Of a stretch of 56,477 nucleotides of DNA, positions 9,349 to 41,460 are shown in pieces (position 1 is the first letter of the stretch; every line of letters begins with the position of its first letter). The notes under the pieces were generated by a model that saw nothing but the letters and a program-made list of their open reading frames with translations, was not told the DNA's origin and did no database searches. Source of the DNA: an uncultured bacterium (GTDB lineage Bacteria; Patescibacteriota; Minisyncoccia; Phycocordibacterales; GCA-2401445); the NCBI GenBank assembly GCA_937952265.1, contig CALFYW010000055.1:1-56477 (forward strand). The letters are read 5' to 3'. The position numbers and the translations under genes were made by a program.

Positions 9349-10128
9349 TCATTCCTTTTCTGCGGCCGGCAGGCCGCTGGATTTGGATTTGGTTTTGGCT
9401 GCGGCGGCCTCGCGAAGCCGGTAACTTTTTCCGCGCATCTCGATGATTTGGCAGTGGTGGAGGAATCGATCGAGAATGGCCGTGGCGGCGGGCACATCGT
9501 TGAGGAGTTTTCCCCAGTCCTCGATCGGACGATTGGAGGTCATGAGAGTTGAACGGGTTTCGTAACGGCGCATGATGATTTCCAGCAGAACTTCCCCGGA
9601 TCTGGGTGGCAGGACCTTCAGCCCCATATCGTCGATGATGAGCAAGTCTGGCTTGAGGTAAGCGGCCAGGGTGCGGTCCAACTCGCGAGGGGATTGGTCG
9701 AGTTGCAGTGCGTGGACCAGGTCGAAGATCGAAGTGTAGAAGGCCTGGAAGCCGGCCTTGATGGCGTGATAGCCGATAGCCTGAATCAGGTGGCTCTTTC
9801 CCAGTCCCGGCGGGCCGATCAAGAGCAGGTCGGTGCGCTGGCGGATGAAATTTCCAGTGGCCAACTCGTAGAACTGCTGCCGTTTGATGGAGGGATTGAA
9901 ACTCCAGTCGAAGTCCTCGAGTGTTTTGCGATCCCGAAAACACGCGGCTTTGACGCGTCGATCGATCTGGCGCTGATGGCGGACGTTGATTTCGTCCTGG
10001 AAGACAAGTTCCAGGAATTGTTCGTGGGGCAATTGATGGGTGGCGGCCTCCTGGAGGCGCAGCTCCAGGCTGGCTAGCAGACCGGAGAGGCGAAGGCGAC
10101 GGGCGTATTCAGTGAGGGTTCTATTCAT
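9349..10128 (-). CDS. istB: IS21 helper ATPase IstB
   Basis: Walker A LLLIGPPGLGKSHL and Walker B DLLIIDDMG. Typical 259-aa length. Overlaps the istA stop. Confidence 0.95.
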   Translation of the reverse strand: MNRTLTEYARRLRLSGLLASLELRLQEAATHQLPHEQFLELVFQDEINVRHQRQIDRRVKAACFRDRKTLEDFDWSFNPSIKRQQFYELATGNFIRQRTDLLLIGPPGLGKSHLIQAIGYHAIKAGFQAFYTSIFDLVHALQLDQSPRELDRTLAAYLKPDLLIIDDMGLKVLPPRSGEVLLEIIMRRYETRSTLMTSNRPIEDWGKLLNDVPAATAILDRFLHHCQIIEMRGKSYRLREAAAAKTKSKSSGLPAAEKE

Positions 10129-11692: not shown

Positions 11693-11966
11693 AGGTGCTG
11701 CGAATCCTCCGCCCAGCCGCGGAGATTGGCAGCCCACCAGACCTTCTCAAGGTGGGTCATTTTGAAGCCGTTCATTTCGACCCGAGGTGGGTCAGTTTGA
11801 GTGACCGCTGACACGCTCGAACACGTGTCGCCTGACTTTCAAAGCCACCAAAAGTATGCCTAGCTAGTTAGGGCTTCTTCCAACGGCCCGGATTTTCGAG
11901 GGGGCATTAGCGACGCTTTTGCTGTTTCCACATCCGTAATGAATCGGAGAAACGAAGAGAAGCAAA

Positions 11967-16237: not shown

Positions 16238-17511
16238 GGGTTTGTTACGCAATAAATGTCGCAATTGAGCCAAGTTCAGTGTAGACTGTCTAGATGGAAA
16301 TTGACCAGGCAATTTCAGAAAGGTTCGCGTTACTTGGTGGTTTGTTGAATGAACGCATGCGCCAACTCGTTGCTGCGGCCGAAGCTATGTCCATCGGGCG
16401 CGGTGGAGTTTCTAAAGTAGCGCGGCTTACTGGAGTATCTCGGGTTGGTCAAACCGAGTCAGTCGACTCACCCGATGAGCGAATCCGCAAGCCTGGCGGC
16501 GGGCGCAAGCGCGCGGTCGATCAGGATAAGACCCTGTTGAGGGATTTGGAGGCACTGATTGATCCGGTGACGCGCGGCGACCCTGAATCACCATTGCGCT
16601 GGACTTGTAAGAGTCTTCGGACCTTATCGTCGGAACTGGAGCAACGCGGACATCAGATCAGTCACCGATTGGTAAGTCAGTTGCTCGGAAATATGGGATA
16701 CAGCCTTCAAGCCAATAGCAAAACCCACGAAGGGCAAAGCCATCCAGATCGAAACGCACAGTTCGAGTTTATCAATCGGCGAACCAAGCAAGAGTTGAGG
16801 GCCGGCAATCCAGTCATCTCGGTCGACACAAAAAAGAAGGAATTGGTCGGAAACTTCAAGAATTCTGGCCGTGAGTATCGTCCCAAGGGGCAACCACAGG
16901 AAGTCCGTGTTCACGATTTTGTCATTCCCGGATTGGGCCGAGCCAACCCCTATGGCGTCTACGATCTGGCCAACGACATGGGGTGGGTGAGTGTCGGTGT
17001 TGATCATGATACTGCGGCTTTCGCGGTCGAATCGATTCGCCGTTGGTGGCGCACGATGGGAGCACCGCTTTTTCCCGGTGCGCGGAGGCTTCAAATCTTC
17101 GCCGACGGCGGGGGTAGCAATGGCGTGCGGGTGCGGTTATGGAAGGTAGAACTACAAAAGCTAAGCGAAGACTTGGGCTTTCCCATTCGGGTATGTCACC
17201 TTCGTCCGGCGACCAGCAAATGGAACAAGATCGAACATCGTCTCTTTAGTTTTATCAGCATGAATTCGAAAGGGCAGCCGCTGGTGAGTCACGAAGTGAT
17301 CGTGAACCTAATCAAAGCAACCACGACGGCTGAAGGATTGACCGTCGACGCGCAGGTGGATGACTCAATCTATCCGTCCGGGATCAAGGTATCCGACGAA
17401 GAGATGGAACAGCTCAACCTGAAAAGAGAAACCTTCCACGGCGATTGGAACTACACGCTCTCTCCGCGGCAGAGAATGCTTAATTTGTAACACTTATTCC
17501 GTAACGGGCCC
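16238..17511 (+). mobile_element. ISAzo13-type (IS630-family) insertion sequence
   Basis: Imperfect IRs gggtttgttacgcaataaatgt (16238) and acacttattccgtaacgggccc (ends at 17511). There is a single transposase ORF. The exact ends and TSD were not resolved. Confidence 0.8.
16294..17490 (+). CDS. ISAzo13-like DDE transposase (398 aa)
   Basis: Hallmark strings RKPGGGRKR, RGDPESPLRWTCKS, ISVDTKKKELVGNFKN.GREYRP, NPYGVYD, FADGGGSNG, TSKWNKIEHRLFSFIS and FHGDWNYT. Confidence 0.95.
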   Translation: MEIDQAISERFALLGGLLNERMRQLVAAAEAMSIGRGGVSKVARLTGVSRVGQTESVDSPDERIRKPGGGRKRAVDQDKTLLRDLEALIDPVTRGDPESPLRWTCKSLRTLSSELEQRGHQISHRLVSQLLGNMGYSLQANSKTHEGQSHPDRNAQFEFINRRTKQELRAGNPVISVDTKKKELVGNFKNSGREYRPKGQPQEVRVHDFVIPGLGRANPYGVYDLANDMGWVSVGVDHDTAAFAVESIRRWWRTMGAPLFPGARRLQIFADGGGSNGVRVRLWKVELQKLSEDLGFPIRVCHLRPATSKWNKIEHRLFSFISMNSKGQPLVSHEVIVNLIKATTTAEGLTVDAQVDDSIYPSGIKVSDEEMEQLNLKRETFHGDWNYTLSPRQRMLNL

Positions 17512-25469: not shown

Positions 25470-25549
25470 CCGATGGCGCTGGGCGCATCTCCGAATGAGG
25501 ACAGATTTTGCTGGGCTACCGAGTTTGGATCGTGTATTGGTCGGTGGAA

Positions 25550-26398
25550 ATGGGTTCAGCGTTTGTCGTGCAGGGGATGTCGGTGGATGCCGATCGACTG
25601 GATTGGCTTCGAGGGTTGATCGAACAAAACGGCGAGTGGAGCCGCAAGCGTTTGGCGCGTGAATTGTGCCTGCGCTGGGATTGGCGCAACGAGCAGGGCA
25701 GGTTGAAGGACTTCGCGGCGCGTAGTTTCCTTTTGAAGTTAGAAGCCGGTGGTTGGATTGAGCTGCCTGCGCTCCGGGAGGACCAGAGGCGCAGGCCCAG
25801 GTCGGTGGCCGAATGGGAAGGGTGGCGCGAGCCCGCGCCATGGGAGGGCTGCCTGAGGCAGTTGAAGCCAGTGGTTTTGGAGGTAGTCAGGGCCGGCACC
25901 GAGGCGGCACGACGCTGGGCCTTTTTGCTCGACCGTTATCACTATTTGGGGTTTCGGGTGGTCGGGGAGAACCTGGGGTATTTGGCCTATGATGGCCGTG
26001 GCCGTGAATTGGCGTGCCTGTTGTTCGGAGCGGCCGCCTGGCGGTGTCGGGCACGAGACATCCATCTGGGTTGGACCAGCGAACAACGAACGATTGGATT
26101 GTCGCGTTTGGCCAACAACACGCGCTTTTTGATTCTGCCGTGGATCCAGGCGCCGCATCTGGCCAGTCATCTTCTGAGCCGAATCGCTCGGCGGATCAGC
26201 GAGGATTGGCAATCCAAATACGGCCATGGATTGAAGTGGCTGGAAACCTTCGTGGATACCACGCGATACGCCGGCACGTGTTATCGAGCCGCCAATTGGG
26301 AGTACGTCGGACAGACAACCGGACGCGGCCGCCAAGATCGTGAGCATCGCTTGGCGGTCCCGCCAAAAGCGGTCTACCTCTTACACCTGCACGCATGA
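25550..26398 (+). CDS. DUF4338 (Druantia DruA-like) domain protein, first gene of the ISKra4-like element
   Basis: YHYLGFRVVGENLGY, LFGAAAWRCRARDIHLGW, NNTRFLILPWIQAPHLAS, LETFVDTTRYAGTCYRAANWEYVGQTTGRGRQDR. The start was chosen at MGSAF by comparison with the paralog at 34888. The stop overlaps the transposase start (ATGA at 26395..26398). Confidence 0.85.
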   Translation: MGSAFVVQGMSVDADRLDWLRGLIEQNGEWSRKRLARELCLRWDWRNEQGRLKDFAARSFLLKLEAGGWIELPALREDQRRRPRSVAEWEGWREPAPWEGCLRQLKPVVLEVVRAGTEAARRWAFLLDRYHYLGFRVVGENLGYLAYDGRGRELACLLFGAAAWRCRARDIHLGWTSEQRTIGLSRLANNTRFLILPWIQAPHLASHLLSRIARRISEDWQSKYGHGLKWLETFVDTTRYAGTCYRAANWEYVGQTTGRGRQDREHRLAVPPKAVYLLHLHA

Positions 26399-27639
26399 AT
26401 GAGCTTCTGAGTTTGGAACAATCGGTCCTAGCCGAAGGCCAAGAGTGGACGCGTCGGCGATTGGAAGCTCAGGCGCAGAGCGAAGTAAACCTTTGGGGGG
26501 CGATCTGCCCGCTCAGCGGGACGGTGTTGAAATATCGCAAGCGGCAGAGGCTCAAAATCATCACCTGCGCGGGAGTGATCGTCTTGAAATCAATCCGAGG
26601 CTTTTCATCGGCCCTGGGCCGATGGGTCAATCCGGCGCGCGAACGCTGGGGACTCAAACCGAAGCAGCGGATTAGCCCCGAACTTCAGTCTCGTCTGGTT
26701 TTCAACGCAACGGCCACCGGCTCCTTTGAAAAAGCCGCCGCCACCGCACGCCGCTGGGGCACAACCATCAGCGATGATGCCGTGCATGCGGTGGTGCAGC
26801 GATTGGGTGAAGCGGCGCAAGTTTTAGCGTTGCCCGCCATAGCGTCAGTGACGGTCGAGCCGGAGTTCTCAATGGTGATTATGATGGATGGATGGATGGT
26901 GCGGCGGCGGGGACCGGATTGGGGTGCCGAGCTGGGCAAGAAACCAGCCGACCGGATTGAGTACAAAGAGGTTAAAAGCGCGGTGATCTACCGCTTGGAA
27001 CAAAACGTCAAGAACGCCTCTGGCCGAGGCTTGTTGTTACAAAAGTATGTGGTGGCGGCTCCACCCGAAACCGAGCCGCTGGAGTTCGGGGCTGCCGTCC
27101 AAGCCCAGGCGCTACGCCACGGCTTGGGTCGGGCTAAGAAAACCTATGTTGTGATCGATGGGGCTGTCTGGCTATGGCATTTGGCACAAGACCGGTTCGG
27201 CGGCGCTATTCACGTCCTGGATTTTCATCATGCAAGCGAGCATCTCTGGGCGGTGGCCCATGCTGTTCATGGCCAGGGCAGCGACGCAGCCCGCGCCTGG
27301 GCCGAAGGGCTACTCCACCAACTACGTCATGGCCAAGAGGCCAACGTGGTTCGAAGCCTGGAAGAGTTGATCGCCCCAGATACCGGGCTATCGCAGAGCG
27401 TTCGCGAGGCCATACGACAACCTGTGACGTATTTTCAAACCCACCGAAACCACATCCAATACGGGGAAATCGCCACTCAAGGCGGCCCGATCGGAAGCGG
27501 CTCGGTCGAGTCACTTTGCAGCCAGCTTCAGGACCGTTTCAAGCGCACGGGCCAGTTTTGGAAGCCTGCCGGTCTCCGCAACCTCCTTAGCTTGCACGTT
27601 CTCCTCCGCAACGACGACTTCGACGCAATCTGGAACTGA
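26395..27639 (+). CDS. ISKra4-family-like DDE transposase (414 aa)
   Basis: MVIMMDGWMV, YVVIDGAVWLWH...HVLDFHHASEHLW, GGPIGSGSVESLCSQLQDRFKRTGQFWKPAGLRNLLSLHVLLRNDDFDAIW. The family was assigned from memory of ISKra4 signatures. Confidence 0.8.
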   Translation: MNELLSLEQSVLAEGQEWTRRRLEAQAQSEVNLWGAICPLSGTVLKYRKRQRLKIITCAGVIVLKSIRGFSSALGRWVNPARERWGLKPKQRISPELQSRLVFNATATGSFEKAAATARRWGTTISDDAVHAVVQRLGEAAQVLALPAIASVTVEPEFSMVIMMDGWMVRRRGPDWGAELGKKPADRIEYKEVKSAVIYRLEQNVKNASGRGLLLQKYVVAAPPETEPLEFGAAVQAQALRHGLGRAKKTYVVIDGAVWLWHLAQDRFGGAIHVLDFHHASEHLWAVAHAVHGQGSDAARAWAEGLLHQLRHGQEANVVRSLEELIAPDTGLSQSVREAIRQPVTYFQTHRNHIQYGEIATQGGPIGSGSVESLCSQLQDRFKRTGQFWKPAGLRNLLSLHVLLRNDDFDAIWN

Positions 27640-27941
27640 CTCCAACCGGCGTCCGACCTCAATCGGAGATGCACCCGATGGCGCTCGACCCAATCGATTT
27701 TTCTTCCTTACGCTTGGAGATTCAGCTTCCATGCAGCAAGCGGGTCTGGGTAGATCGATCCCCTTCTGTCCGCCCGTTATTCGGATGGTGGGAAATACCC
27801 ACCATCCGATGTGTCCCCGCGGCTTGGCGCCCACTGGGCTACGGCAGGACCCAGCGGAGGAGGTCGAGCATCCTCCACTGCAGCTGATCTATATATACTT
27901 CGACTGAACCGAACCAACCGAACACTCCCTTAGTCACGGAG

Positions 27942-28187
27942 TCACGAGTTACCCACGGTGAGGCAGCCGTAGCTTCCGCAGGACGGGCAGTGGAACGTGA
28001 ACCCGATGAACTGATCACGATGCACGGACTTGGCAAGCAGGGCAGAGCAATTGCCACAGATCAGATTGGTGCGCCCGCCACCAATGAAACAAACGGATTC
28101 GGTCGTTCCAGCTTCGTAGTCGAGCAGACGCCCGCTGAATTCGTCGGGTTTCGGAACTACTGTCAAACGCACCTCCTGGAACTGCAT
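27942..28187 (-). CDS. Possible small zinc-ribbon protein (81 aa)
   Basis: CGNC ... CPSC pair. Several overlapping ORFs make the call weak. Confidence 0.35.
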   Translation of the reverse strand: MQFQEVRLTVVPKPDEFSGRLLDYEAGTTESVCFIGGGRTNLICGNCSALLAKSVHRDQFIGFTFHCPSCGSYGCLTVGNS

Positions 28188-28473
28188 GGATTAACACTGT
28201 ATTCGGAATATGATTTCGTCCAGGGAAAACTAACAAATCCATCGCGGAAAGATGACGCTTCCGTTTCGCATGGAAAACCCCTGCGTCGCCAAGAAATGAT
28301 GCGAATTCGTGAAAGGATTTGGCGATCAGCAGCGTATACGTATACGGCGAGAACTGTGGGGAAGTTCCCGTGACCGTGCGCCGTCGAAGAAGTCGGGCCG
28401 AGGATTGTGTTCTCGTGACGGGGAGCGTTAAGCTTTCGCCGTCGCGTATGAAAGGGCAATGTGACGCGTCAGG

Positions 28474-28790
28474 CTACTGAGTTGGCGCCGGTGCGAGCGT
28501 CAGATAGAAGGTCGCCCCCTTTTCAACAGCGCCCTCAGCCCATGTTCGCCCACCATGGCGAAGAACGATCCGCCGAACGGTGGCAAGCCCGATTCCCGTT
28601 CCCTCGAATTCCTCCGCGCGGTGGAGACGCTGAAAGACGCCAAAGAGCTTTCCTGCATACCTCATGTCAAATCCGGCGCCGTTGTCGCGCACAAACACGG
28701 TGAGTCGATTCCCGTCCATACCGGTGGTTCCAATCTCAATCTCAGCTGAAGTCTTTCGCTTCGTATACTTGATCGCGTTGCCGATCAAAT
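28474..28790 (-). pseudogene. 3' part (HATPase_c) of a sensor histidine kinase gene split by IS66
   Basis: (L)IGNAIKYT...VRDNGAGFD...FQRLH...[17 protein letters not shown]. It continues ...EQVFTNLI, which ends at 35676 on the other side of the IS. Confidence 0.85.
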
Positions 28791-28913
28791 GTAAGCGTCA
28801 ACGGAGGTGCGTGGGGTCGGTTGGGCGGGGAGCGGCGGCGGCCGGCGGCGACACGCCGGGCAGGCCCAGGTAAAGCCACGCGCGGCCGCCGATGTTGGCA
28901 GCCGACGGGCCGG

Positions 28914-29183
28914 TTATCCGCGTTGTTCGAGGCCGCTGGACGAATCGGAACTCGGCGCGGGCGGCTTCCAGCGGCTGGGCGTCAGGGTTTTCGCCTCTTG
29001 GGCCGTGATCGCAGGCAGTCGGCCGAGCACGTCGGTCAGATAATCCTGTGGATTGATATCCCGACGTCGACAGCTTTGGATGATGGTGTAGATAACGGCG
29101 CTGCGCCAGCCGGCGTCCGGGTGGCCGATAAAGAGCCAGCGGCGGCGACCGACAGCCGAAGGGCGGACATCGTTTTCCACGAG
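28914..29183 (-). pseudogene. tnpC: 3' fragment of IS66 tnpC
   Basis: (NLV)ENDVRPSAVGRRRWLFIGHPDAGWRSAVIYTIIQSCRRRDINPQDYLTDVLGRLP is the canonical IS66 transposase C-terminus. It continues from ...RFEIDNNLV at 32640. Confidence 0.85.
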
Positions 29184-29280
29184 GTTATGCCGAATGCAGG
29201 ATTATGCCGCGTGAAGTTCTGGAACTTGGATTCTTCATGGAGAACGGAGATTTTGGTGTCGGCGCACGCGGCATAATCAT
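29184..29280. repeat. RIT left terminal inverted repeat
   Basis: The reverse complement matches 32513..32609 with about 3 mismatches by eye. Contains 2 copies of the TTATGCCG motif. Confidence 0.85.
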
Positions 29281-30272
29281 AGGCTCTCAAGGAACGCTAG
29301 CAGTCGGTCTTTGGGGCGGTAGCGTTTGATTGAGGTTTTGTTTGGGCTCGCACGATCCAAGGCTCTTTCCTTCATGGCCATGTCCGCATGCACGTAGGCC
29401 TGGGTGGATTGGATGGACTCATGTCCCAGCCAGAGCGCGATGACAGTGATGTCGACCCCGCGTTGCAGCATGTCCATGGCAGTCGTGTGGCGGAGCGTAT
29501 GTGGAGTCACGCGCTTGCGCCGCAGGGATCGACACGATTCACCAGCGATTTTCGCGTACCGAGCGACCAAGCTTTGGAGAGCGTCAGCACTCAATGCCTT
29601 GCCGCCGGCGGTCGGAAAGACCGGCCTTGTTGGATCGGGCGGTTCGTGAGCGAGCCACCGTGTGAGGCTTTTGGCAGTGTCCGAACGCAACGGTGTACTG
29701 CGTGCCTTGCGCCCCTTGCCAAGACAGCGGACGTGCGGCCCGGGTCCGAGGTGGAGGTCCTGCTGACACAATGTGGTTAACTCCGTGTTCCGTAACCCAG
29801 TCTGCAACGCCACCTCCAGCAAGAGGCGATCTCTGCCTCCCCGCCAAGTTGTGGTGTCGGGCGCATTCAGGAGCGCTTTGATCTCCTCCGTACGTAGGAA
29901 TTCCACCGGGCCTCGCTCGAAACGCTTAAACGGGATCGCCAGCACTTGCTGACAGTGATGGGCAAGTCCGGGTTCCTGTAGACATACCTGCCGGAAGAAG
30001 GAGTGAATGGCACTGAGCCGATTGTTGCGGGAGCGTGCCCTGTTACCGCGATTCTGCTCGAGATGACGAAGGAACGTCGCGACGAGTTTCGCGTCCAGAT
30101 CCTCGACCTTCAGATCACTCACCGGGCAGCGCCGATGCTTGGAAGCGAACATCAGCAGGAGTCGGAAGGTGTCACGATAGCTGGAAACGGTGTGTGGGCT
30201 CGCGCCCAGTTGTCCCAACAGTCGTTCGGTGAAGAAGCGCTGGATGTGGCCGGACAGGTTCGCCGTGATCAT
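29277..30272 (-). CDS. ritC: Tyrosine recombinase, third gene of the trio (331 aa)
   Basis: C-terminal catalytic region HTLRHTTAMDMLQRGVDITVIALWLGHESIQSTQAYVHA. 4-bp overlap with the preceding gene. Confidence 0.9.
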   Translation of the reverse strand: MITANLSGHIQRFFTERLLGQLGASPHTVSSYRDTFRLLLMFASKHRRCPVSDLKVEDLDAKLVATFLRHLEQNRGNRARSRNNRLSAIHSFFRQVCLQEPGLAHHCQQVLAIPFKRFERGPVEFLRTEEIKALLNAPDTTTWRGGRDRLLLEVALQTGLRNTELTTLCQQDLHLGPGPHVRCLGKGRKARSTPLRSDTAKSLTRWLAHEPPDPTRPVFPTAGGKALSADALQSLVARYAKIAGESCRSLRRKRVTPHTLRHTTAMDMLQRGVDITVIALWLGHESIQSTQAYVHADMAMKERALDRASPNKTSIKRYRPKDRLLAFLESL

Positions 30273-31216
30273 GGTCGTCCTCCCTGTTCCGACATGAGCC
30301 GCCGATTGGCGGCCAGTTCAAGCAACTCAGGGACCGCCTCGATGTACCAATAGGTGCATTCCACCGACGAATGCCCCAGGTAGGTGGCCAGTTTCGGCAT
30401 CTGGGAATTGACGTCGCATCCGGACTGATACCACTCAATCAAGCACCGGGTGGCGAATGTGTGGCGCAGGTCCTGCAAGCGGGGTCCTCGTCCGGAACGT
30501 TTTCCCTCGGTGCCGCTCCTCAAACCGCAGGACCGCGAGATCTTGCAATACCAGCAATGAACGGTACCCAGATCAAGCGCGTCTCCTCGGCCCGAGACGA
30601 AGAACGTTCTGTTGATCGAATGACCGAAGAGCCGGTCCCGCTCCTGTGCGTAATTCTTCAAGGCCGCGACCGTCGAGGAATGGATCGGTACCTGCCGCGA
30701 CTTTCCGAACTTCGACATTCGCACGATGAGCAATCCGGCCAGGAGATCAACGTCGCCGACCTTCAGAGCGGCAGCCTCGCCGGGACGCAGTCCGGTGGCG
30801 GCAAGCAAGCCAATGAGGGTTTTCAGCGTCATCGCGTTAATCCTGTGACGCGATCTCAATCTCGAGGCTTCCGCCATCAGACGAACGATCTCTTGATTGC
30901 TGTAGATGTATGGCGTTGGGCGGCGGCGCCGGACGTTCAGCAAGCGGGATGGTGGCACCTGATGACGAGGTTCGCTGACACTGAGCCACCGGGCAAACTG
31001 GCGCACCATGGACAGTTTTCGAGCCCAGGTGGCCCGTTGCACGTCCGGGGATTGTTGGGACCACTCCAACGCCAGTGCGACGGTGATAAATCGGGCCTTC
31101 TTCCGTTTCAGGAACTGGACGAACTGGCGAAGGGTCTTAGCCGGTTCCTCCAGTCGTGTCCCCAAGGCGCGTCGAGCCGCCACATACGCCGTCAACTGGG
31201 CTTGAAGGGATTTCAT
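30269..31216 (-). CDS. ritB: Tyrosine recombinase, second gene of the trio (315 aa)
   Basis: GLRPGEAAALKVGDVD, LQDLRHTFATRCL, LATYLGHSSVECTYWYIE. 4-bp overlaps on both sides. Confidence 0.9.
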   Translation of the reverse strand: MKSLQAQLTAYVAARRALGTRLEEPAKTLRQFVQFLKRKKARFITVALALEWSQQSPDVQRATWARKLSMVRQFARWLSVSEPRHQVPPSRLLNVRRRRPTPYIYSNQEIVRLMAEASRLRSRHRINAMTLKTLIGLLAATGLRPGEAAALKVGDVDLLAGLLIVRMSKFGKSRQVPIHSSTVAALKNYAQERDRLFGHSINRTFFVSGRGDALDLGTVHCWYCKISRSCGLRSGTEGKRSGRGPRLQDLRHTFATRCLIEWYQSGCDVNSQMPKLATYLGHSSVECTYWYIEAVPELLELAANRRLMSEQGGRP

Positions 31217-32388
31217 CGCGCACCTCCCGCAACGGGCCAGGGGTGGACGACTTCCTGTAGCGAACGCAGATCGATCTTGGCGTAGATCTCAGTGCTGCTG
31301 GGAGCATGGTGTCGAAGCACTTGCCCAATGTCGTGCAGGCGGGCTCCTTGTCTGAGCATCCCACTTGCCAAGGAGTGACGGAACAAATGGGCGGCGGTTC
31401 GGTGGGGTCGTCGGATCCCCGCTTGCGCCATGGCTCGACGCACAACATGACCAATACTAGCCGGTCCGCTCAGTGGTATCCGGGGAGCAATTGTGCGCAG
31501 GAAGACGCGTTTGGTCGTGGAGCGAACTCCTCGGTCCAGCCGCAGGTAGCGCGCCAAGGCGGTTCCGACCTCATGAGGCAAAGGGAGGAAATCCTGTCGG
31601 CGACCTTTGCCGCGGATCAGGATCTCGCCAGTCCTCCAGCGGATGTCACCCACTTCAAGCAGGAGGACTTCACTCGCCCGAAGTCCCAACTTCGCCAATA
31701 AGAGCAGGATCGCATAATCGCGTCGCCCGGTGCCACAGGTCCGATCAGGGGCCGCCAGCACCCGGCTCACTTCTTCCGGCGAAAGCACTTTGGGGATGTC
31801 GGGCTGGGCCGTTCGACGAACAGAGGGGATCGCCGCGACGAGATCGCGCCGGATATATCCTCGCACGTGGAGAAAGCGCAAGAATGAACGGAGGCTTGCG
31901 CATAGCAAGCGCACATACGCTGAGGAGCGGTCTCGGGAACGATCGAAGAGAAACGCTCGCAGAATACGACTATTGAGCCGGCGAACCGAAGAAACGCCAT
32001 GTTCTTTTGTCAAGTAGCTGATCAAGTCGGGAATTAGCGGCAGGTAGGCCAGGAGGGATCTCTCTGCCAACCCTTTCTCGTGTCGGAGAAAATCGGAATA
32101 CTCATCTTGAAGCCGCGAAACGCGTGTGTTCAAAGGTCTCCGAGCGGGTGTGGCGATCAATCCCTGCAGCCGTAAGTGTTGCAGGAATCCCGACAGAGCC
32201 GTAACCGCGAGGCTGCGGTGCTTTGGTCCGAGGAGACAAGCACGCCGAAGAAACAAGGCCACCTCCGATTCGTTCGTTCCGCGCCTGAAATTTCTTCGCC
32301 GTCGCCGCCAGTTCAAGAACTCCTTCAGTGCTTTCCGCTTTGTATGGAGGGCGCTGTCGGAATAACCCGCGGCCGTCAATTGGGTCAC
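31213..32388 (-). CDS. ritA: Tyrosine recombinase, first gene of the trio (391 aa)
   Basis: GLRASEVLLLEVGDIRW, HLFRHSLASGMLRQGARLHDIGQVLRHHAPSSTEIYAKID. Confidence 0.9.
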   Translation of the reverse strand: MTQLTAAGYSDSALHTKRKALKEFLNWRRRRRNFRRGTNESEVALFLRRACLLGPKHRSLAVTALSGFLQHLRLQGLIATPARRPLNTRVSRLQDEYSDFLRHEKGLAERSLLAYLPLIPDLISYLTKEHGVSSVRRLNSRILRAFLFDRSRDRSSAYVRLLCASLRSFLRFLHVRGYIRRDLVAAIPSVRRTAQPDIPKVLSPEEVSRVLAAPDRTCGTGRRDYAILLLLAKLGLRASEVLLLEVGDIRWRTGEILIRGKGRRQDFLPLPHEVGTALARYLRLDRGVRSTTKRVFLRTIAPRIPLSGPASIGHVVRRAMAQAGIRRPHRTAAHLFRHSLASGMLRQGARLHDIGQVLRHHAPSSTEIYAKIDLRSLQEVVHPWPVAGGAR

Positions 32389-32512
32389 GAAAGGGGTGAT
32401 TTGCTCTTCGAAAATGTCAGAGATGGAAGAACACCGTAGACGAGAATGATTGCTACACGTCGACGATCTCGACCCCTCTTGTCATCAAACGCGAGCCGAA
32501 GATTCCCACCGT

Positions 32513-32609
32513 ATGATTATGCCGCGTGCGCCGACACCAAAATCTCCGTTTTCCATGAAGAATCCAAGTTCCAGAACTTCACGCGGCATAATCCTGGATT
32601 CGGCATAAC
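32513..32609. repeat. RIT right terminal inverted repeat
   Basis: Partner of 29184..29280. Confidence 0.85.
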
Positions 32610-32639
32610 CTCGTTTATGCCGCCCGCGGCATAAACGAG

Positions 32640-34007
32640 ATTGTTATCAATCTCGAAGCGACCGTCGCGAAGATATCCGACCATCGCGGTGTATTCGTTG
32701 ATGAAGTAGCGCACCGCTTTGCCCAGCGTGCTTTTGGGCAACACACGCGGATCCTTCTTCAATTGTTCGGCGCGTTTTTTCATCTCCCGCCAAAGCCCTG
32801 GTGCATGGGCCAGACGTTCCCGGCGGCGCTCTTCAAAGGACGTTTCCCGGATCCGATCTTCGATTCGATAGAGTTCTCGTATTTTCTGAATGAACCAAAG
32901 TCCATCTGGAAGCGATTCCTTGAGCGCCTGAAAAAATCCGCGTCTGGCGTGGCCCAGGCAGCCGATGCGTTTGAGGCGTCCGCCGCCACCACGCCGCAAC
33001 GATTCGTAGACTTGGTAGCCGTCGCTCTGGATGGTGCCCTCAAAGCCCTCGAGCCGGGATGCTGGTCCCGCGCGGCCCCGTCCATCGCAGAACTCCAGGA
33101 GAACATCGCCGCCTGGGTTCGCGTAGAACCATAGGTAACCGGATCCCGCTTTGCCTTTGACTTCCGGATCGAGGACTTTGACGGGAGTCTCGTCGACTTG
33201 GAGGTAAGAGGTGGCTTTGAGCTCCTCCCAGATCGCCCAGTAGATCGCCAAAAGCAGATGGGCGATCTTTTCGACCCACTGCACAATCTGCTGACGGGGG
33301 ATCACGACTCCAAAGCGTTCGCGAAAGTTGCGCTCCAGCGTGTAGTAAGCGACGTGGTCGTCGAAACGGCTGAGCAACAGGAACACCGCCAACCCCAGAC
33401 CCAGCTTGCTTTGCGGCAGCAAGCGCGGCGGCAGCTGAGCAATCGCCACACCGCTGCAACAGTCCCGGCCGCACTCTCCGTATTTGGGCCGGATGATTTC
33501 CTTGATGATGAGCTTGGCCGGCTCGAACTCGTACTCGGTGGTGCGTTCCTGACCCATTCGCGGCCGCAGTTCTCCGGTGATCGGGCAGTGATTGTTCTCC
33601 GGTTCCAAGACCTCGGTGCGCCGGACCAGTTCAACCGGTGGCAGGTGACGGCGTTTCTTTCGATGCTTTCGCCGTTTACCCTGTTGGTCGCGCTCCTTTT
33701 TCTTCTCGTCCTCGACCACGTCCTGGCTCAGCGGCGGTGGGCCCTCGTCAGCCTCCTGGAGCTCGGTGACGAGTTTTCCAAGTTGATCTTCCTCTTCGGC
33801 GGTGAGCTTCTCGGATTTGGAGCCGTAAAGTTGTTGCTTCAAGTCGGCAATGAGGGCCTGCGCCTCGGCCAACTTTTGCTTGTGTTCCTGGGCTTGCTGG
33901 AGGGCTTGATCGAGTTGTTCGTGTACGGCTCGCAACTCCTGCCGAGTGGAGGCCAACTCCCGTTGGGCCTCTTGAAGTTGGTCAACCAAGTCGTGCGGGT
34001 TCTTCAT
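32640..34007 (-). pseudogene. tnpC: 5' part of IS66 tnpC (DDE transposase), truncated by the RIT insertion
   Basis: Starts MKNPHDLVDQLQEAQ. Contains LYGSKSEKL, a Cys-rich zinc region and the DDE_Tnp_IS66 core (YLQVDETPVKVLD...GYLWFY...IQSDGYQVY). It ends at EIDNNLV and then reads into the RIT IR. The ATG overlaps the DUF4338 stop (ATGA at 34004..34007). Confidence 0.9.
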
Positions 34008-34888
34008 GCGCACAGGACCTTTCGAAAATTGGTTTGCAGGGGATAAACATAGATCGCCTTGAGCGGCACCTGGATGGAACCTTGGCGGTCTTGGCGCGTG
34101 CGTCCTTTGGTCAGGCCCACGTTGCGCCAATTGGCGGCCTGATACACCGTGCCCCGGAAGCGGTCCTGCTCGACGAAGGTTTCCAACACCCTCACCGGAT
34201 GTCCGTATTTGCGCTGCCAATCCCCTGCGATCCGTCGGCTGATCCGGCTCAGAAACCAACTTCCTAAACCGGGCGCCTTGATCCAAGGCAAGATCAGGTA
34301 TCGGGTGTTATTGGCGATGAGTCCCAGATTGCGTGCTCGCTGCTCAGCGTTCCACCCGATGAATCGGTCGCGGTCCTGACACTTCCACGCTGGCGCCCCA
34401 AACAACGCGAAGGCCAGCGCACGACCTGTGCGGTCTTGGAGGCAGTATCGAAGGTTTTCGCCGACGCTCCCGCCAAAACCCAAGAAGTGAAACTCTCTAA
34501 GCGCCTGGTCCATGAGCCGGCGTGCCGCGGGCGTTTGACTGATTTCCTCCACGCTCAGGGGCTGCAGCTGCCGCAAGGCCACCACCTCCGTGGGACGCTC
34601 CAACGACGCGGCCGCGCAAGGTTGCGAGCGCCTTCGCGCAACCGGTGCTCGGCGCCGAGGCGGCAGGTTCACCAGACCGCGTGCCTCCAGCTTGAGCAGA
34701 AGCGTGCGCGCGGCCATGTCCTTGAGCCGGCCCGAGCCGTTGCGCCAGTTCCACCGTTGGGCCACTTCCTTGGAAATCCGACACCGATGCCAGTCAGGGT
34801 GGGTGGCGATCAGTTCTCGAATCTGCTCGAGATCCTCGCGCGTCCACGACCGGCCCTGTAGATGGAAGATTTGCGCCACGACCCCCAT
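34004..34888 (-). CDS. DUF4338 (DruA-like) domain protein located between IS66 tnpB and tnpC
   Basis: FHFLGFGGSVGENLRY, LFGAPAWKCQDRDRFIGW, NNTRYLILPWIKAPGLGS, LETFVEQDRFRGTVYQAANWRNVGLTKGRTRQDR. Roughly 45-50% identical by eye to 25550..26398. Confidence 0.85.
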   Translation of the reverse strand: MGVVAQIFHLQGRSWTREDLEQIRELIATHPDWHRCRISKEVAQRWNWRNGSGRLKDMAARTLLLKLEARGLVNLPPRRRAPVARRRSQPCAAASLERPTEVVALRQLQPLSVEEISQTPAARRLMDQALREFHFLGFGGSVGENLRYCLQDRTGRALAFALFGAPAWKCQDRDRFIGWNAEQRARNLGLIANNTRYLILPWIKAPGLGSWFLSRISRRIAGDWQRKYGHPVRVLETFVEQDRFRGTVYQAANWRNVGLTKGRTRQDRQGSIQVPLKAIYVYPLQTNFRKVLCA

Positions 34889-34945
34889 GGTGGCGGAAAA
34901 GTTTTTGCGAGTCCAGAGAAACCGGAGCTCCGAACCAAAAAAAAA

Positions 34946-35281
34946 TTACAACCGATGCCAGTGGCGCCGGCTTACGCCCTCCAGACCGTGGAGGAGCAGG
35001 CTCAACTCTTCGGCCCGCAACAAACGACTGACGCCTTCGCCGTTGGGCCAGCCGAAGCTTCCGCGATCCAGGCGTTTGGCACAGACCCACAAACCCGAAC
35101 CGTCATAGCAAAGAATTTTCAGCCGGTTGCGGTGTTTGTTGGTGAAAACAAAAAAGTGGCCCGATGTCGGATCCTCCTTTAACACCGCCTGAACTCGGGC
35201 GAAGAGACCATTGAAACTCTGGCGCATGTCCACCGGCTCCAGCGCCACGAAGATCCGGGTGGCCGCGTTGACACTCAGCAT
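34946..35281 (-). CDS. tnpB: IS66 accessory protein TnpB (start at MLSVNAATRIF)
   Basis: EPVDMRQSFNGLFARVQ...DPTSGHFFVFTNKHRNRLKILCYDGSGLWVCAKRLDRGSFGWP. Confidence 0.9.
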   Translation of the reverse strand: MLSVNAATRIFVALEPVDMRQSFNGLFARVQAVLKEDPTSGHFFVFTNKHRNRLKILCYDGSGLWVCAKRLDRGSFGWPNGEGVSRLLRAEELSLLLHGLEGVSRRHWHRL

Positions 35282-35616
35282 GGCTGGCGAAGTGGCTGAA
35301 GAATCGCCCGCACCCATTGCGGATCGGCGCCGGCTTGGAGCCGCACCACAGTCCCGCCCGCCAGGGCTATTTCCGCACCCCAATCGGCCGTCGACTTCAC
35401 CCCTGCTATCCGGATCTCCTGGAAGTCAGCTGCTGCCACTGCTCCCGGCGTCCGCCGCCTTCTCGGCCCGTAGAGCCAGTTGCGAAATGTCGTCCACTTG
35501 ACGCCGTGACGCCGCGCGAACGCCCGCTGCGTCTCGTTGCCGGACCGGAACTCCTTGACCAAGGCCGCGCGCCTCTGCGCCGAATACTGAGCGCGTCGGG
35601 TCGATGCTCGATTCAT
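35275..35616 (-). CDS. tnpA: IS66 orfA/TnpA-like HTH protein (113 aa)
   Basis: YSAQRRAALVKEFRSGNETQRAFARRHGVKWTTFRNWLY. Position is upstream of and overlapping tnpB. Confidence 0.85.
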   Translation of the reverse strand: MNRASTRRAQYSAQRRAALVKEFRSGNETQRAFARRHGVKWTTFRNWLYGPRRRRTPGAVAAADFQEIRIAGVKSTADWGAEIALAGGTVVRLQAGADPQWVRAILQPLRQPC

Positions 35617-35675
35617 CCCGCCAGCCTAACCGACGTCGCCCGCCCGCCGCTAGGCGCGCTCGCCTTGACGCTTAC

Positions 35676-37967
35676 GATCAAATTGGTGAATACTTGTTCA
35701 AGGAGGGCTTGATCTCCCATCACGGTGGGAAGTGGTGCAATCGACCAGGAAATCGCGCGATCGCAGGTTGCCATCTCCAGATCGCTCACGACCGAGTCTA
35801 TTAGGGGATTCAATTCAATTGGAACTTCCCGAAGTGGTCCGCGGGCGGTTTGGGAAAACGACAACAGATCGTCAATGAGCTGTCCCATCCGGATGCTCGC
35901 ACGCGAAATCGTCTCAATATGGCTTTGAGCCCGCTCGGAAAACTGATCCTCAAGCTCCCGCGACAAGAGCGCGGCATACCCATGAATGTGACGCAATGGA
36001 GCACGCAAGTCGTGCGACACTGAGTAGGAGAACGCCTCCAGTTCCTTGTTCGCTGCTTCGAGATCACGTGCGCGGGTCCTGAGATCCGCGTGCAACCGCG
36101 AAATCCGCGCTTCATCTTCTTGGCGCTGCGTAATGTCGTTAAAGAGGACCGCAACCTGTCGGTCACCGAGTTGGCCGAAACGAAACGCATAAACGTCATA
36201 GGTGCGACCCAATGGGTCGGCTCGGTTTTGAAAACGCGCCGGCATGCCCGTGATCGCGACCTTACCCAGATTCTCAATCCAGTGCGCTTCAAGCGCTGGG
36301 AGAAGTTCACGGATGCGCTTGCCGACGACCGAGGAAAGTCCCGTGTGCTTCTCGAATGAGGGATTCACCTCCAGGAACCGGAAGTCTGCCGGTTTACCGT
36401 CGTCGTCGAAGATCATTTCAATGATACAAAAACCTTCATCAATCGACGTAAACAAACCCCGATAGCGCGCCTCACTAGAACGGAGCGCTTTCTGGGCGTT
36501 TCGCTCGGGTGTCACGTCGCGGAATATGAGGACGACGCCAATGACGGCACCATCCCGATCATGGATGGGCGCGGCACTGTCGGCAATCGAACGTTCCGTC
36601 CCGTCACGAGCCAACAAGGCAGTGTGGTTTGCAAGACCCTGAATCGCACCCGTCTCAAGCACCCGATCCACCGGATTCGGAACGGCGAGTCGTGTATCCT
36701 CGTTGATCGTACAGAAGACGTCGGCAACCGCTTGACCGGCGGCGTCACGCATTTTCCAACCGGTCAATTGCTCGGCGATGGGGTTCATTCTCGTTACACG
36801 CGAATCCGTGTCAGTGACCAATACGGCGTCGCCGATCGAGTTGAGGGTGACCGCCAGCCGCTCCTCGCTTTCGCGCAGCGACGCAAACGCCTTGAGCCGT
36901 GAACGGAAGAGTCGAGCGGCAATTACGGCGGTAATGGAAAGCAGCGCCGATAGAATCCCAAACACGGTTCGTAATCCACCAAGGATCGCCGAAAGCTCGC
37001 GGTTCGAAATCTCCGAAGCCATGACCAAAAAGGCGTCTTCGGCAGTGACATATCCGGGCTGGTCCGCGAGGTGGTGACGGGTGTCAACCCGACGCCACGT
37101 GAGAATTCCGCGAGCGCTTCGCTGGTGACCGGTCGCACGCGTCATGACGCGGGCCCAGAGCGCTGGTTCCGATTGCGCGAGGGTCGTGTTTTGACGCTCG
37201 GGGAACATAAAGCCCCATTCGGTGGCGGGATCATCACCCTTGAGCACGAAACCACTCGCATTGAACACTCGAAGACGGTGGTACACGTTTGGCCAGAGCC
37301 TTTGAAACTGAGTGAATAGATGCTGTCCCCGGTAATTGATAACGTAAATACCACGACGTCGGCCGGATTGGTCGAAGATCGGTGTAGCCAAACGTACGAC
37401 AGGTTTGCGGGGCTCCTCCACACGGCCGTCTTCCATATTGAGGCTGAAGGCCGAAACGAAAATCTGGTTGGGCGCCAACTCATTGGCGCGTGCGACGTAT
37501 GACCGATCGGACTTGTCCTTGAGGTCGTTCTCGGGGACGATACGTCCACCTTGATTAACGCGGAACACCTCCAGGCCGCTCGAGTCCAGGAAGCGAAGTT
37601 GGTCAAATTTCGGTTGCTGGCGGCTGATAAACGCCGCACGCGCGACGCTGCGCTCGAGATCAGTCGAACGGCCCGTCTCAAGATAGGCGCGTAGACTGTC
37701 ACCGGTTGAAAGCCTGCGCACGTCATCGGCCAAGACGCGCAACTCCTGCTCGAAAAGCCGGGCGAACATGTCGACGCGGGTACGCTCACGAAGAAGGGCC
37801 GACCGCTCAATTTGACCCGCCTCACGCAAATACGTTCCTCCGCAGAAGACGAGCGCAGTGCCGACAAGGATCCCGGGCAGCAGGAGCGTGGTGCTCCAAA
37901 ACTCTCGCTTCCGTTTCAGTGAACTGCCCATGAGGAATACCGATCTCGATGCGGCGCGTATTCCCAA
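35676..37967 (-). pseudogene. 5' part of the sensor histidine kinase (periplasmic Cache-like sensor, TM, 2 PAS, HisKA), interrupted by IS66
   Basis: PAS segments RESEERLAVTLNSIGDAVLVTD and SEARYRGLFTSIDEGFCIIEM. H-box FSYSVSHDLRAPLRHIHGY. The frame ends at ...EQVFTNLI at the IS66 TSD. The ORF-track tail 35613..35675 is IS sequence. Confidence 0.85.
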
Positions 37968-39408: not shown

Positions 39409-41460
39409 TCAATATATCCCATCCATCGGCGGCCCGCTCTCCGATGATCCGCCATTGAAAGGGTCAAACCCGATGACCGCGGACAGCCGCTTCCGCATCG
39501 CGTGTCCCGGCCGGCGCCGACCGAGCTCCCACCCGATCATCGTCTTATCCGAGACCCCCACCGCTTCCGCGAACTCCTTCACCGTCAGCCGCTGGTGCAT
39601 TCGATAGGCTCGAAGACGCCCTCCACCGTCGGTCTCAGACGTGGATAACAAGGCCACGTCATGGGGTTTGGTGCTCCGGGGTGCACCAGCCGCCGGATCC
39701 GTAAACGGATCAAACCCCAGAAAAGCGGCGATCGCTGGTTGATGAACCCAGGCAGGGAAGACTTTTCCGCACTCCCAGCGACTGAGTGTTACCGTGCTAA
39801 CCTTGAGCAAATGCGCTACTTGCGCTTGCCGCAAACGCTTTTCCGCACGCCGCTTGATGAGGAATTCGCCCACGGTATTGGGCTGCGTTGGAACGAGCGC
39901 TCCTCGGACCCGGACGGGCAAAAACGCTGCTCGATCCGCACGAATCACTCGGTAGCAACAAGGCAACGTCGCCAACAGGTTTCGTTGCCTTTTTGTGAGC
40001 GCTTCAGAAGAAGGTGATGCACAAAGTGTTATCGTTACGGTCTGGTTTGATACTTCGATCGATTCCACAATGCTTTCAATTAGGCCGCGCTTGTCCTCCG
40101 GTGACAAGCGCGGCCAAGAAGCATGCAGGTTCATGGCTTCGCCCACGACTTCTTCCGCTGAAAGCTCGTGGATCTTGAGTGCATCGAGCTCGCCTTGGAG
40201 CTTGGGCAACTCCGACGCGAGGGTGCGTTCCTGCGCTTCGAGGGGGCTGTTGAGGGATCCGAATCCCTCGGTCGAGATCTGATCGTCTTGGTAAAGCCGG
40301 TAGACCTTACGCTTTTCTTCCCGAACGCGATCCAACCGGCGTTCATGGGCGGTCACCCGACTCTCGAGATCCCGAACATGCTCGCTTGCATGCTCCAGGT
40401 GCTCGCGCACAGCGTCTTCGGAGACCAGGAATGCCTTAAGGCGTTCCCGAAAGATCGCTTCCAAATCCTCGGCCGGGATCTTGGTTCGACATTGCGAACA
40501 GACATATTTCGGCGAGCGGGAGAACACGTACATTTTTCGGCCACACCCGCACCGGAGGAGACCGGCAAACAGATGCACCGGTTTTGGGCCGGGCGCCTGA
40601 CCGTTGCTGCGCCGATCACGTAGGATCTCGTTGCACTGCTCCCAGAGCGTCTCCGAGACCAACGCATCAACGGGGGTATGGACCCACTCCGACTCGGGCT
40701 TGGTCTGAAGCTTTCCCCGAGCATCCCGAAAGGTATGATTGGACCGATACCGGCCCTTGGCGGTTGGATCCCGAATGAGCCGATCAATCGTGGTATCCGT
40801 GAATGCGGCTCCCTTTCGCGTCCGATATCCTGCGTCGTTTACCACGCGCACCACGGTCTTGATGCGGCGGTGTTCGAGAAACAATTCGTAGATCCACTTG
40901 CGGATCGGCCCCTCAGACGGGTCGATTTCCAAGCGGTTGTCCACCCAACGGTAGCCAAACGGAGCCGCCCCGCCCAAGTTCTTACCCAATTCGGCCCGCA
41001 CCCGTATCGATGCCCGGACCCGATCGGTGATCTCCTCACGCTCCCACTGCGCCATGGCAGCGATAATGGTGAAGAAGAGCCTTCCCGCCGGTGAGGATGT
41101 GTCGATCGACTCTTGCAGTGAGATTAAATCAGCGCCGAGGTCCCGGAACTGGTCGGCAAAATCAAGCAACTCACGGGTATTTCGAGCGAGGCGGGCGAGT
41201 TTGGAGAAAATCAGGGCGGAAATATGTCCGCGCGTGATATCGCGAATCATCCGGACCGCTTCCGGGTGGTCCTTGACGGATTTCCCGCTCACTGCCTCCA
41301 AATGGTAAATCTCGCGGACCGCCCACCCTTGAGATTCGGCGTAGGCACGCGCGCGGCGTTCGTGGTGATCGGGGCTGTCGCCTCGGGCTTGGTCCTCCGT
41401 CGATACGCGGATCCAAATCCCCACTGAACGGGGTGATGAACGGGCCGACCGCGCCTTCAT
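39409..41460 (-). CDS. Large serine recombinase with two C-terminal XRE-type HTH modules (683 aa)
   Basis: Resolvase catalytic N-terminus VGIWIRVSTEDQ...ALIFSKLARLARN...LQESIDTSSPAGRLFFTIIAAMAQWERE. Recombinase domain, Cys-rich zinc ribbon (LLRCGCG...YVCSQC) and a coiled coil. Then VGEFLIKRRAEKRLRQAQVAHLLKVSTVTLSRWECGK and LRAYRMHQRLTVKEFAEAVGVSDKTMIGWELGR. Confidence 0.95.
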   Translation of the reverse strand: MKARSARSSPRSVGIWIRVSTEDQARGDSPDHHERRARAYAESQGWAVREIYHLEAVSGKSVKDHPEAVRMIRDITRGHISALIFSKLARLARNTRELLDFADQFRDLGADLISLQESIDTSSPAGRLFFTIIAAMAQWEREEITDRVRASIRVRAELGKNLGGAAPFGYRWVDNRLEIDPSEGPIRKWIYELFLEHRRIKTVVRVVNDAGYRTRKGAAFTDTTIDRLIRDPTAKGRYRSNHTFRDARGKLQTKPESEWVHTPVDALVSETLWEQCNEILRDRRSNGQAPGPKPVHLFAGLLRCGCGRKMYVFSRSPKYVCSQCRTKIPAEDLEAIFRERLKAFLVSEDAVREHLEHASEHVRDLESRVTAHERRLDRVREEKRKVYRLYQDDQISTEGFGSLNSPLEAQERTLASELPKLQGELDALKIHELSAEEVVGEAMNLHASWPRLSPEDKRGLIESIVESIEVSNQTVTITLCASPSSEALTKRQRNLLATLPCCYRVIRADRAAFLPVRVRGALVPTQPNTVGEFLIKRRAEKRLRQAQVAHLLKVSTVTLSRWECGKVFPAWVHQPAIAAFLGFDPFTDPAAGAPRSTKPHDVALLSTSETDGGGRLRAYRMHQRLTVKEFAEAVGVSDKTMIGWELGRRRPGHAMRKRLSAVIGFDPFNGGSSESGPPMDGIY

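Follow-up and report, generated by a model that had tools for sequence, protein, structure and literature searches.

DUF4338, a GNAT-fold protein coupled or fused to DDE transposases of several insertion sequence families, as a putative transposition accessory

The window studied here is the whole 56,477-nt contig CALFYW010000055.1 (assembly GCA_937952265.1) of an uncultured bacterium placed by GTDB in the Patescibacteriota. It contains two insertion sequences (ISs) of different families, one ISKra4-type and one IS66, and each of them carries a gene of the Pfam family DUF4338 (PF14236) directly upstream of its DDE transposase gene. We propose that DUF4338 is not cargo but a portable, non-essential accessory enzyme of the DDE transposase, with which it would work together, and we give this reading a probability of about 65 %. 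It is regarded as a portable module because it has been kept with its transposase over deep divergence, has moved between IS families and has been fused to the transposase in several of them. Database surveys show DUF4338 joined to transposases, by an overlap or by fusion, in at least four to six different families. A first-pass annotation of the window had raised the idea of a transposition accessory, with a passenger gene as the alternative. The accessory idea was supported, and it is the conserved fusions to transposases in several families that favour it over the passenger.

The two DUF4338-bearing insertion sequences

The features of the two elements are as follows (IR, inverted repeat; TSD, target site duplication; HTH, helix-turn-helix; ORF, open reading frame).

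25481..27676, plus strand: complete ISKra4-type IS of 2196 bp, carrying DUF4338-A and a transposase
25550..26398, plus strand: DUF4338-A (ORF-A), 282 aa, with the HTH-like domain in residues ~1-70 (PF14236, E=7e-29)
26395..27639, plus strand: ISKra4-type (Mutator-like) DDE transposase, 414 aa (NCBIfam ISKra4, Pfam UPF0236)
14604..~14912, plus strand: decayed ISKra4-type/DUF4338 fragment, consisting of the left IR and the 5' third of DUF4338
28792..35675, minus strand: IS66-family element, ~3.43 kb without the element nested in it, with terminal repeats and TSD
35275..35616, minus strand: IS66 tnpA (HTH), 113 aa, upstream of tnpB (weak HTH_Tnp_1 and HTH_28 matches)
34946..35281, minus strand: IS66 tnpB, 111 aa from the ATG at 35281, homologues also 111 aa (PF05717, E=3.5e-31)
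34004..34888, minus strand: DUF4338-B (ORF-B), 294 aa (PF14236, E=3e-29)
32635..34007, minus strand: N-terminal part of IS66 tnpC (leucine zipper, zinc finger, DDE), ending ...EIDNNLV (PF03050, E=5e-56; NF033517, 249.6 bits)
28914..29178, minus strand: C-terminal part of IS66 tnpC, ENDVRPSAVGRRRWLF... (PF13817 DDE_Tnp_IS66_C, E=1.5e-9)
29179..32634, minus strand: 'recombinase in trio'-type element, 3.46 kb, with three tyrosine recombinases and 103-nt IRs

The assignment of both ORFs to DUF4338, made earlier from the sequence alone, was borne out by the Pfam profile, with 101.3 bits for DUF4338-A and 102.6 bits for DUF4338-B against a cut-off of 27. The two proteins, judged by eye to be 45-50 % identical, are 48 % identical over 283 aa. 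As had also been claimed, each gene lies inside an IS, within its IRs and TSDs.

The ISKra4-type element is bounded by 25-nt IRs (25481-25505 and 27652-27676) and flanked by the 9-bp TSD GATGGCGCT at 25472-25480 and 27677-27685. Terminal IRs and 9-bp direct target repeats are features of the ISKra4 group, and direct repeats of 9 bp are listed for it in the supplement of PMC3942029. The transposase aligned with NF033572 over residues 6-406 of its 414 and scored 198.7 bits, just below the cut-off of 205. A promoter and terminator scan of the element gave nothing exceeding shuffled controls. The third, truncated copy reported by the first-pass annotation was found at 14604-~14912: it has an IS end in common with the complete element and is ~90 % identical in nucleotide sequence to 25481-25885, with deletions of 94 and 3 nt.

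The IS66 element has GTAAGCGTCAA... ends and an 8-bp TSD, GATCAAAT, at 28784-91 and 35676-83. With tnpA-tnpB-tnpC, GTAAGCG-type ends and an 8-bp duplication it belongs to IS66, and it departs from the canonical element by an additional DUF4338 ORF and a split tnpC. On the minus strand the genes run tnpA, tnpB, DUF4338-B, tnpC, which places DUF4338-B between tnpB and tnpC, as first described. The tnpB start codon overlaps the end of tnpA by 7 nt, and a 57-nt spacer separates tnpB from DUF4338-B. The reading frame of tnpC breaks off after ...EIDNNLV and resumes at 29178, on the other side of the nested element 29179-32634; because tnpC is split by this three-integrase element, the window copy of IS66 cannot encode an intact transposase.

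In both elements the stop codon of DUF4338 overlaps the start codon of the transposase by the four nucleotides ATGA, as gcATGAatg at 26395-26398 and as gcgcATGAaga at 34007-34004 of the minus strand. The earlier statement that the genes are translationally coupled stands as far as the overlap is concerned, and coupling itself is predicted from the overlap. Within ~20 nt upstream of the two transposase start codons there was no strong Shine-Dalgarno sequence (GGAGG-type); the tnpC ATG is preceded at ~11 nt by a weak AAAGG. No slippery heptamer was present at the two junctions.

The window is an IS-rich region, and the genome it stems from is probably one of the Verrucomicrobiota. The element nested in tnpC has IRs of 103 nt which are 98 % complementary (29179-29281 and 32512-32614), and three consecutive Phage_integrase ORFs on the minus strand (31213-32388, 30269-31216 and 29277-30272). 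CTCGT is found at either flank, and the inner end of the nested element together with the adjoining tnpC sequence forms a hairpin (32607-32623 and 32626-32642). The IS66 insertion itself interrupts a PAS/histidine-kinase gene of the minus strand, with the HATPase end at 28474-28788 and the sensor and DHp parts at 35613-37967. Elsewhere in the window are an IS21 (istA 10121-11737, istB 9349-10128), an ISAzo13-family transposase gene (16294-17490) with no DUF4338 gene upstream, and a gene (39409-41460) whose product is a large serine recombinase with HTH domains.

Position, retention and fusion in other genomes

Homologues were abundant at E<=1e-5, amounting to 7995 of 8000 candidates for DUF4338-A and 4916 for DUF4338-B. 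The best 120 were 56-76 % identical, ~280-295 aa long and nearly all located on contigs of ~2.2 kb (A type) or ~3.4-3.6 kb (B type). The contigs match the two elements in size, which is what repeats that break assemblies would be expected to give. One relative, P0077, which is 64 % identical to DUF4338-A, occurs unchanged at many genomic sites and is always followed by a 414-aa transposase with the 4-nt overlap. Comparison of its sites defined a 2217-bp unit with IRs (GGGCGCATCTGCGAATGAGG...) near-identical to those of the window element and with 9-bp TSDs at three sites. IS66 relatives have the order tnpA-tnpB-DUF4338-tnpC with the same overlap as in the window. In one of them, L014, GTAAGCG ends and the 8-bp TSD GGTTAATT enclose all four genes; these ends were located by a motif search for GTAAGCG and then read, the automated repeat search having returned no IS66 IRs in L014 or L080. 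The IS boundaries given by independent copies of both elements therefore enclose DUF4338.

A survey of one genome per GTDB species with two strict peptide patterns of DUF4338 gave 398 relatives, and the best 80 loci were analysed. They came mostly from Verrucomicrobiota, and further from Acidobacteriota, Planctomycetota, Chloroflexota, Proteobacteria and Kiritimatiellia. When the loci chosen by DUF4338 and those collected earlier were taken together, the ORF downstream of DUF4338 encoded an ISKra4-type transposase at 47 loci and an IS66-type transposase at 39. The IS66-type partners showed three architectures: the canonical one, a single-ORF type with DUF6444, and one with tnpB and tnpA inverted downstream. 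The last of these (L037, L038, L047-L049 and L063) has DUF4338-tnpC on one strand and a convergent tnpB-tnpA downstream, and it is conserved across several metagenome-assembled genomes. Since DUF4338 stays with tnpC even where tnpA and tnpB are inverted, we count this variant in support of a fixed position.

The position of DUF4338 was invariant, on the same strand and directly upstream of the transposase. Over all fetched loci, 90 of 118 distinct DUF4338 coding sequences (76 %) ended in an NTGA overlap onto an open downstream ORF, the overlap being ATGA in 79, GTGA in eight and TTGA in three. Two further loci may add partner families. At L066 (1409-2605) a 398-aa DDE_Tnp_1 transposase starts from the ATGA overlap with DUF4338, and at L082 (1009-2322) a 437-aa ORF without a Pfam match does the same. 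A Tn5-like transposase located 87 nt downstream of DUF4338 at L059 was rejected as a partner: the first codons of an ISKra4-type transposase (MSATL) persist there after the ATGA, and the Tn5-like gene is probably a nested insertion.

The opposite approach was to fetch 80 metagenome loci with the ISKra4-type transposase of the window, blind to DUF4338. A full DUF4338 gene was found upstream at 45 of these and a partial one, truncated or at a contig edge, at 10; another 16 had none although 300 nt or more of upstream sequence was available, and nine were uninformative. Every locus in this transposase-chosen set with at least 60 % transposase identity carried DUF4338, so that copies without the gene are not the rule. 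In the transposase tree the loci without DUF4338 formed an outgroup and a single clade nested among the DUF4338-bearing loci. The association of DUF4338 with the ISKra4-type transposase is thus old and inherited with the transposase, was lost once in this sample, and is dispensable. In the nested clade (L119, L122-L124, L128, L134, L135, L149, L155 and L156) a conserved ORF of ~110-136 aa (MQDKKI..WQKQL..QLGPMRPGTLSQQFKRPGQKNGPYWQLSYTFRQR) is present instead upstream of the transposase, divergently and on the opposite strand.

DUF4338 is under purifying selection. The dN/dS ratio (nonsynonymous to synonymous substitution rates) was 0.08-0.17 for the least diverged pairs, except for pairs in which one copy was visibly decaying, and 48 alignment columns were invariant among 50 sequences with a mean identity of 57 %. 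A tree of the IS-borne sequences, with no true DruA included, broadly tracked the type of transposase, and an IS66-linked subclade was nested within the ISKra4-linked clade. This nesting indicates that DUF4338 has been exchanged as a module among IS families.

In addition to being coupled, DUF4338 was found fused to transposases. A search of plasmids with tblastn returned two records only, both from Thiodictyon. The first encodes a protein annotated as an 'ISAs1 family transposase', in which the GNAT domain of DUF4338, without the N-terminal domain, precedes DDE_Tnp_1_assoc and DDE_Tnp_1. The top 120 homologues of this protein were 58-91 % identical, ~440 aa long and encoded on ~2-kb contigs; all 120 had the DUF4338 GNAT domain and DDE_Tnp_1_assoc (PF13808), and most also DDE_Tnp_1 (PF01609). 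Two ISAs1-type elements (L016, 3908-5669; L177, 2501-4256) encode such a fusion of ~443 aa, with the last third of the DDE domain in a second ORF, which in L177 overlaps the first by 29 nt. This arrangement suggests a frameshift-type or split transposase. The second plasmid encodes a Tn5-like transposase whose N-terminal DNA-binding domain begins at an ATGA overlap with DUF4338 (Tnp_DNA_bind, E=5e-20); this transposase has since been split by an IS91-type element.

A profile search of 1.84 billion representative sequences gave 11,076 PF14236-type clusters at E<=1e-3, and the long proteins among the best 150 were read. These included full-length DUF4338 fused to a Tn5-like transposase in at least five full-length clusters, plus partial ones, and to another DDE_Tnp_1 type in five clusters. 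The Tn5-like and DDE_Tnp_1 fusions, of ~750-785 aa, make up at least 10 separate clusters at 50 % identity. One-nucleotide assembly errors were considered as the source of the ISAs1, Tn5-like and DDE_Tnp_1 fusions and were ruled out by the many independent clusters. Also among the best 150 were single clusters with an IS630-type (DDE_3) and an ISAzo13 transposase, and two proteins with an IS66 transposase in reverse order relative to DUF4338.

Fold, relatives and possible chemistry

The AlphaFold2 model of DUF4338-A (mean pLDDT, or predicted score in the local distance difference test, 85) has a β-hairpin and three helices in residues 1-66, followed after a linker by a GNAT fold that spans ~106 to 282. 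Foldseek matched it in the PDB to SpeG, FeeM, GCN5 and HP0935 with E-values of 2e-5 to 1e-4 and template modelling (TM) scores of ~0.64, in agreement with the assignment of DUF4338 as a GNAT domain by Aravind (PMC10853773). The model predicts two domains for DUF4338, of which the N-terminal one is small, basic and HTH-like and the C-terminal one has a GNAT (acyl-CoA N-acyltransferase) fold with an invariant set of His, Glu, Tyr and Arg. No PDB sequence rose above noise when ORF-A or profile A1 was used as the query. The N-terminal domain modelled alone (pLDDT 88) had no significant match in the PDB; its best hit, at E=1, was an HTH-type DNA-binding domain, and we therefore call it no more than HTH-like.

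Residues H131, G139, Y144, R169, D170, G174, W175, R192, L204-A-S206, D219, W220, E232, Y245, N249, W250, G254, G258 and K273 are conserved in both the free and the ISAs1-fused forms. The invariant E232 and Y245, which the model would place at β5/α4, are candidate catalytic residues. The motif-A loop, which in GNATs binds the pyrophosphate of acyl-coenzyme A (acyl-CoA) by Q/R-x-x-G-x-G/A after strand 4, is partly canonical, reading Q-A-P-H-L-A-S in DUF4338-A and K-A-P-G-L-G-S in DUF4338-B; L-A/G-S is conserved in more than 90 % of sequences and the first Gly is variable. Both proteins are strongly basic, with isoelectric points of 9.9 (A) and 11.2 (B).

These properties bear on what the enzyme may do. 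Within the accessory model it is possible, although we would not favour it, that DUF4338 is a protein acetyltransferase with the transposase, a nucleoid protein or a repair protein as its target, or a ligand sensor which responds to acyl-CoA or charged tRNA and gates its partner according to the state of the cell. The GNAT fold comes closest to SpeG, GCN5 and the protein acetyltransferase HP0935; a regulatory input domain is suggested by the adenylate/guanylate cyclase fusion, and the HTH-like domain is dispensable in the ISAs1 fusions, once the GNAT domain is tethered. However, the very basic surface and the many invariant arginines would suit a nucleic acid at least equally well. The resemblance to generic GNATs such as SpeG, GCN5 and FeeM extends to TM scores of 0.6-0.65 over ~190 residues and to the partly kept motif-A loop, but DUF4338 differs from them in its 10-13 % identity, two inserted helices that separate strands 3 and 4, the extra N-terminal domain and the IS context.

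A second option, likewise a form of the accessory model, is that DUF4338 modifies DNA in the manner of Mom and gives the IS its own epigenetic mark for end use, timing or target immunity. Mom hypermodifies DNA adenine (PMC7261163); it is a GNAT which modifies adenine in double-stranded DNA with Gly-tRNA and is encoded by a DDE-transposing phage (PMC13219725). Like Mom of phage Mu, DUF4338 is a basic protein of GNAT fold from a DDE-transposing element, and the profile similarity is weak: ORF-A scored 22.4 bits (E=1e-4) against the Mom family PF25680, under the cut-off of 27.1, and weak matches were also obtained with several relatives and fusions, whereas ORF-B did not match. The GNAT domain is strongly basic. 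Many phage proteins of 500-700 aa described as 'endonuclease-like' or 'homing endonuclease' matched the DUF4338 GNAT model in BFVD (E 1e-6 to 1e-4), and according to a preprint Druantia type I, which lacks any methylase domain, yields an N6-methyladenine (m6A)-like signal (10.1101/2024.04.14.589459). On the other side, profile A1 matched no PDB chain, the leading Foldseek matches are ordinary small-molecule and protein GNATs, and the CoA motif-A loop is partly kept (K-A-P-G-L-G in B). Mom is moreover a late phage gene which is not coupled to a transposase. We therefore regard DNA modification as rather unlikely. The same rating applies to its most specific form, in which DUF4338 would be a Mom-like writer on ISs of many DDE families, for instance by N6-acylation or aminoacylation of adenine, timing or directing transposition, and in which the same chemistry of DruA would serve self-marking in Druantia type I. 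Control of transposition by DNA modification has a parallel in Dam methylation, which controls IS10 and IS50.

Mobile elements commonly carry GNAT toxins which act by acetylating aminoacyl-tRNA, and DUF4338 could in principle be an addiction toxin of the TacT/AtaT type that stabilises the IS in the genome. This is hardly credible: neither element has an adjacent small antitoxin gene, DUF4338 is ~100 aa longer than such toxins and has a different N-terminal domain, and a toxin does not fit with fusion to a transposase.

The description of the two genes as Druantia DruA-like holds at the level of the Pfam family and no further. The window proteins (~101-103 bits) share the family and the core YHYLG...VGEN...FGA.AW.C..RD with DruA, but they have ~280-295 aa compared to the 407 positions of the PADLOC DruA model (PDLC00002). 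This model gave no match with DUF4338-A and 18 bits (E=2.8e-4) over 47 residues, 143-189, of DUF4338-B, and no NCBIfam model matched either protein. No druB-E gene adjoined either DUF4338 gene, the neighbours being IS genes within the IRs and TSDs, and a Pfam scan of 10 of the window's 29 ORFs with 230 aa or more, several of those above 800 aa excepted, revealed nothing Druantia-like. The window proteins are remote paralogues, not orthologues, of Druantia type I DruA.

A putative accessory of DDE transposition

If DUF4338 works with the transposase, the two would be expressed from one mRNA, and the ATGA overlap would tie translation of the transposase to that of DUF4338, so that both proteins may be present together near the element. 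DUF4338 would then act at or with the transposition complex, and its GNAT domain would transfer an acyl group, or an aminoacyl group as Mom does, to a substrate independent of the IS family. Candidate substrates are DNA, the transposase itself and a DNA-bound host protein. The effect would be a tuning of transposition and not its catalysis.

Several observations weigh against such a role. There are related ISKra4-type elements that lack DUF4338 and occur in multiple copies, and canonical IS66 elements without it were also found (e.g. at L016); DUF4338 is therefore not required for the chemistry of transposition. The N-terminal motif W.R.R....W.WRN..G.LKD.AAR..LLKL is near-identical between elements with unrelated ends, which makes it unlikely that this domain recognises IS ends. 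PF14236 also occurs outside ISs, in Druantia type I DruA and in DUF4338-DndF fusions of restriction systems (PMC10853773). Full-length DUF4338 is fused to an adenylate/guanylate cyclase and to MORN repeats in P0437 and P0449, and the domain is therefore also in use outside transposons, possibly as a sensor or regulatory module. The isolated IS630, ISAzo13 and reverse-order IS66 fusions could be due to one-nucleotide errors at the overlap. Finally, all survey loci were sampled by similarity to the window proteins.

Some of these observations would suit passenger cargo, that is, a host-beneficial or selfish gene for defence or anti-defence which rides on the IS and has no part in transposition: the family includes Druantia DruA and the DndF fusions, ISs transpose without DUF4338, and the cyclase and MORN fusions exist. 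With a cargo gene, however, one would not expect a single unchanging place and direction in which 76 % of distinct genes overlap the next by 4 nt; nor would it lie between tnpB and tnpC, or form one polypeptide with the transposase in families that are large and conserved. As the PADLOC DruA model also misses DUF4338-A and no druB-E are adjacent, we consider cargo quite unlikely. Three findings had been named in advance as able to overturn the accessory idea, namely failure of a profile search to place both proteins in DUF4338, IS boundaries that exclude the gene, and a prevalence of copies which lack it and transpose equally well. All three were examined and none spoke against it.

As a transposase accessory, DUF4338 would join IS66 TnpB, IS21 IstB, IS91 orf121 and TnpB/IscB of IS200/IS605/IS607, which are likewise conserved, non-catalytic ORFs located inside the IS ends and co-expressed; TnpB, too, is associated with unrelated transposase types. 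It differs from them in being a GNAT and not AAA+ or RuvC-like, in being associated with more DDE families and in being sometimes fused. The arrangement also resembles OrfA/OrfAB of IS1 and IS3, where an HTH-like upstream ORF overlaps the transposase ORF in the -1 frame and both fused and unfused forms occur; the ISAs1-type fusion is in the same way followed by an overlapping ORF with the rest of the DDE domain. Unlike OrfA, DUF4338 has the fold of an enzyme, and ISs with differing ends share its conserved HTH-like domain. A survey of ISKra4 reports four elements with extra genes of unassigned function (PMC3942029), and no description of an association between DUF4338 and transposases was found in the searchable literature. 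A GNAT accessory that spans many DDE families and is fused to some of them appears to be new among the known IS accessory genes.

IstB, IS66 TnpB and TnpB/IscB have each opened new mechanisms. If a GNAT partner is common to four to six unrelated DDE families, it would represent a new class of transposition factor. This partner is present in thousands of environmental genomes, where it is annotated only as 'DUF4338' or hidden in calls of 'ISAs1/IS4 family transposase', and in IS-rich genomes Druantia will be called too often by annotation pipelines which take any PF14236 protein for an anti-phage 'DruA'. The IS-borne DUF4338 provides a simple two-gene system for the biochemistry of the DruA domain, with H131, R169, R192, E232 and Y245 as targets. 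Should the domain prove to have Mom-like chemistry, this would account for the m6A-like signal of the methyltransferase-less Druantia type I.

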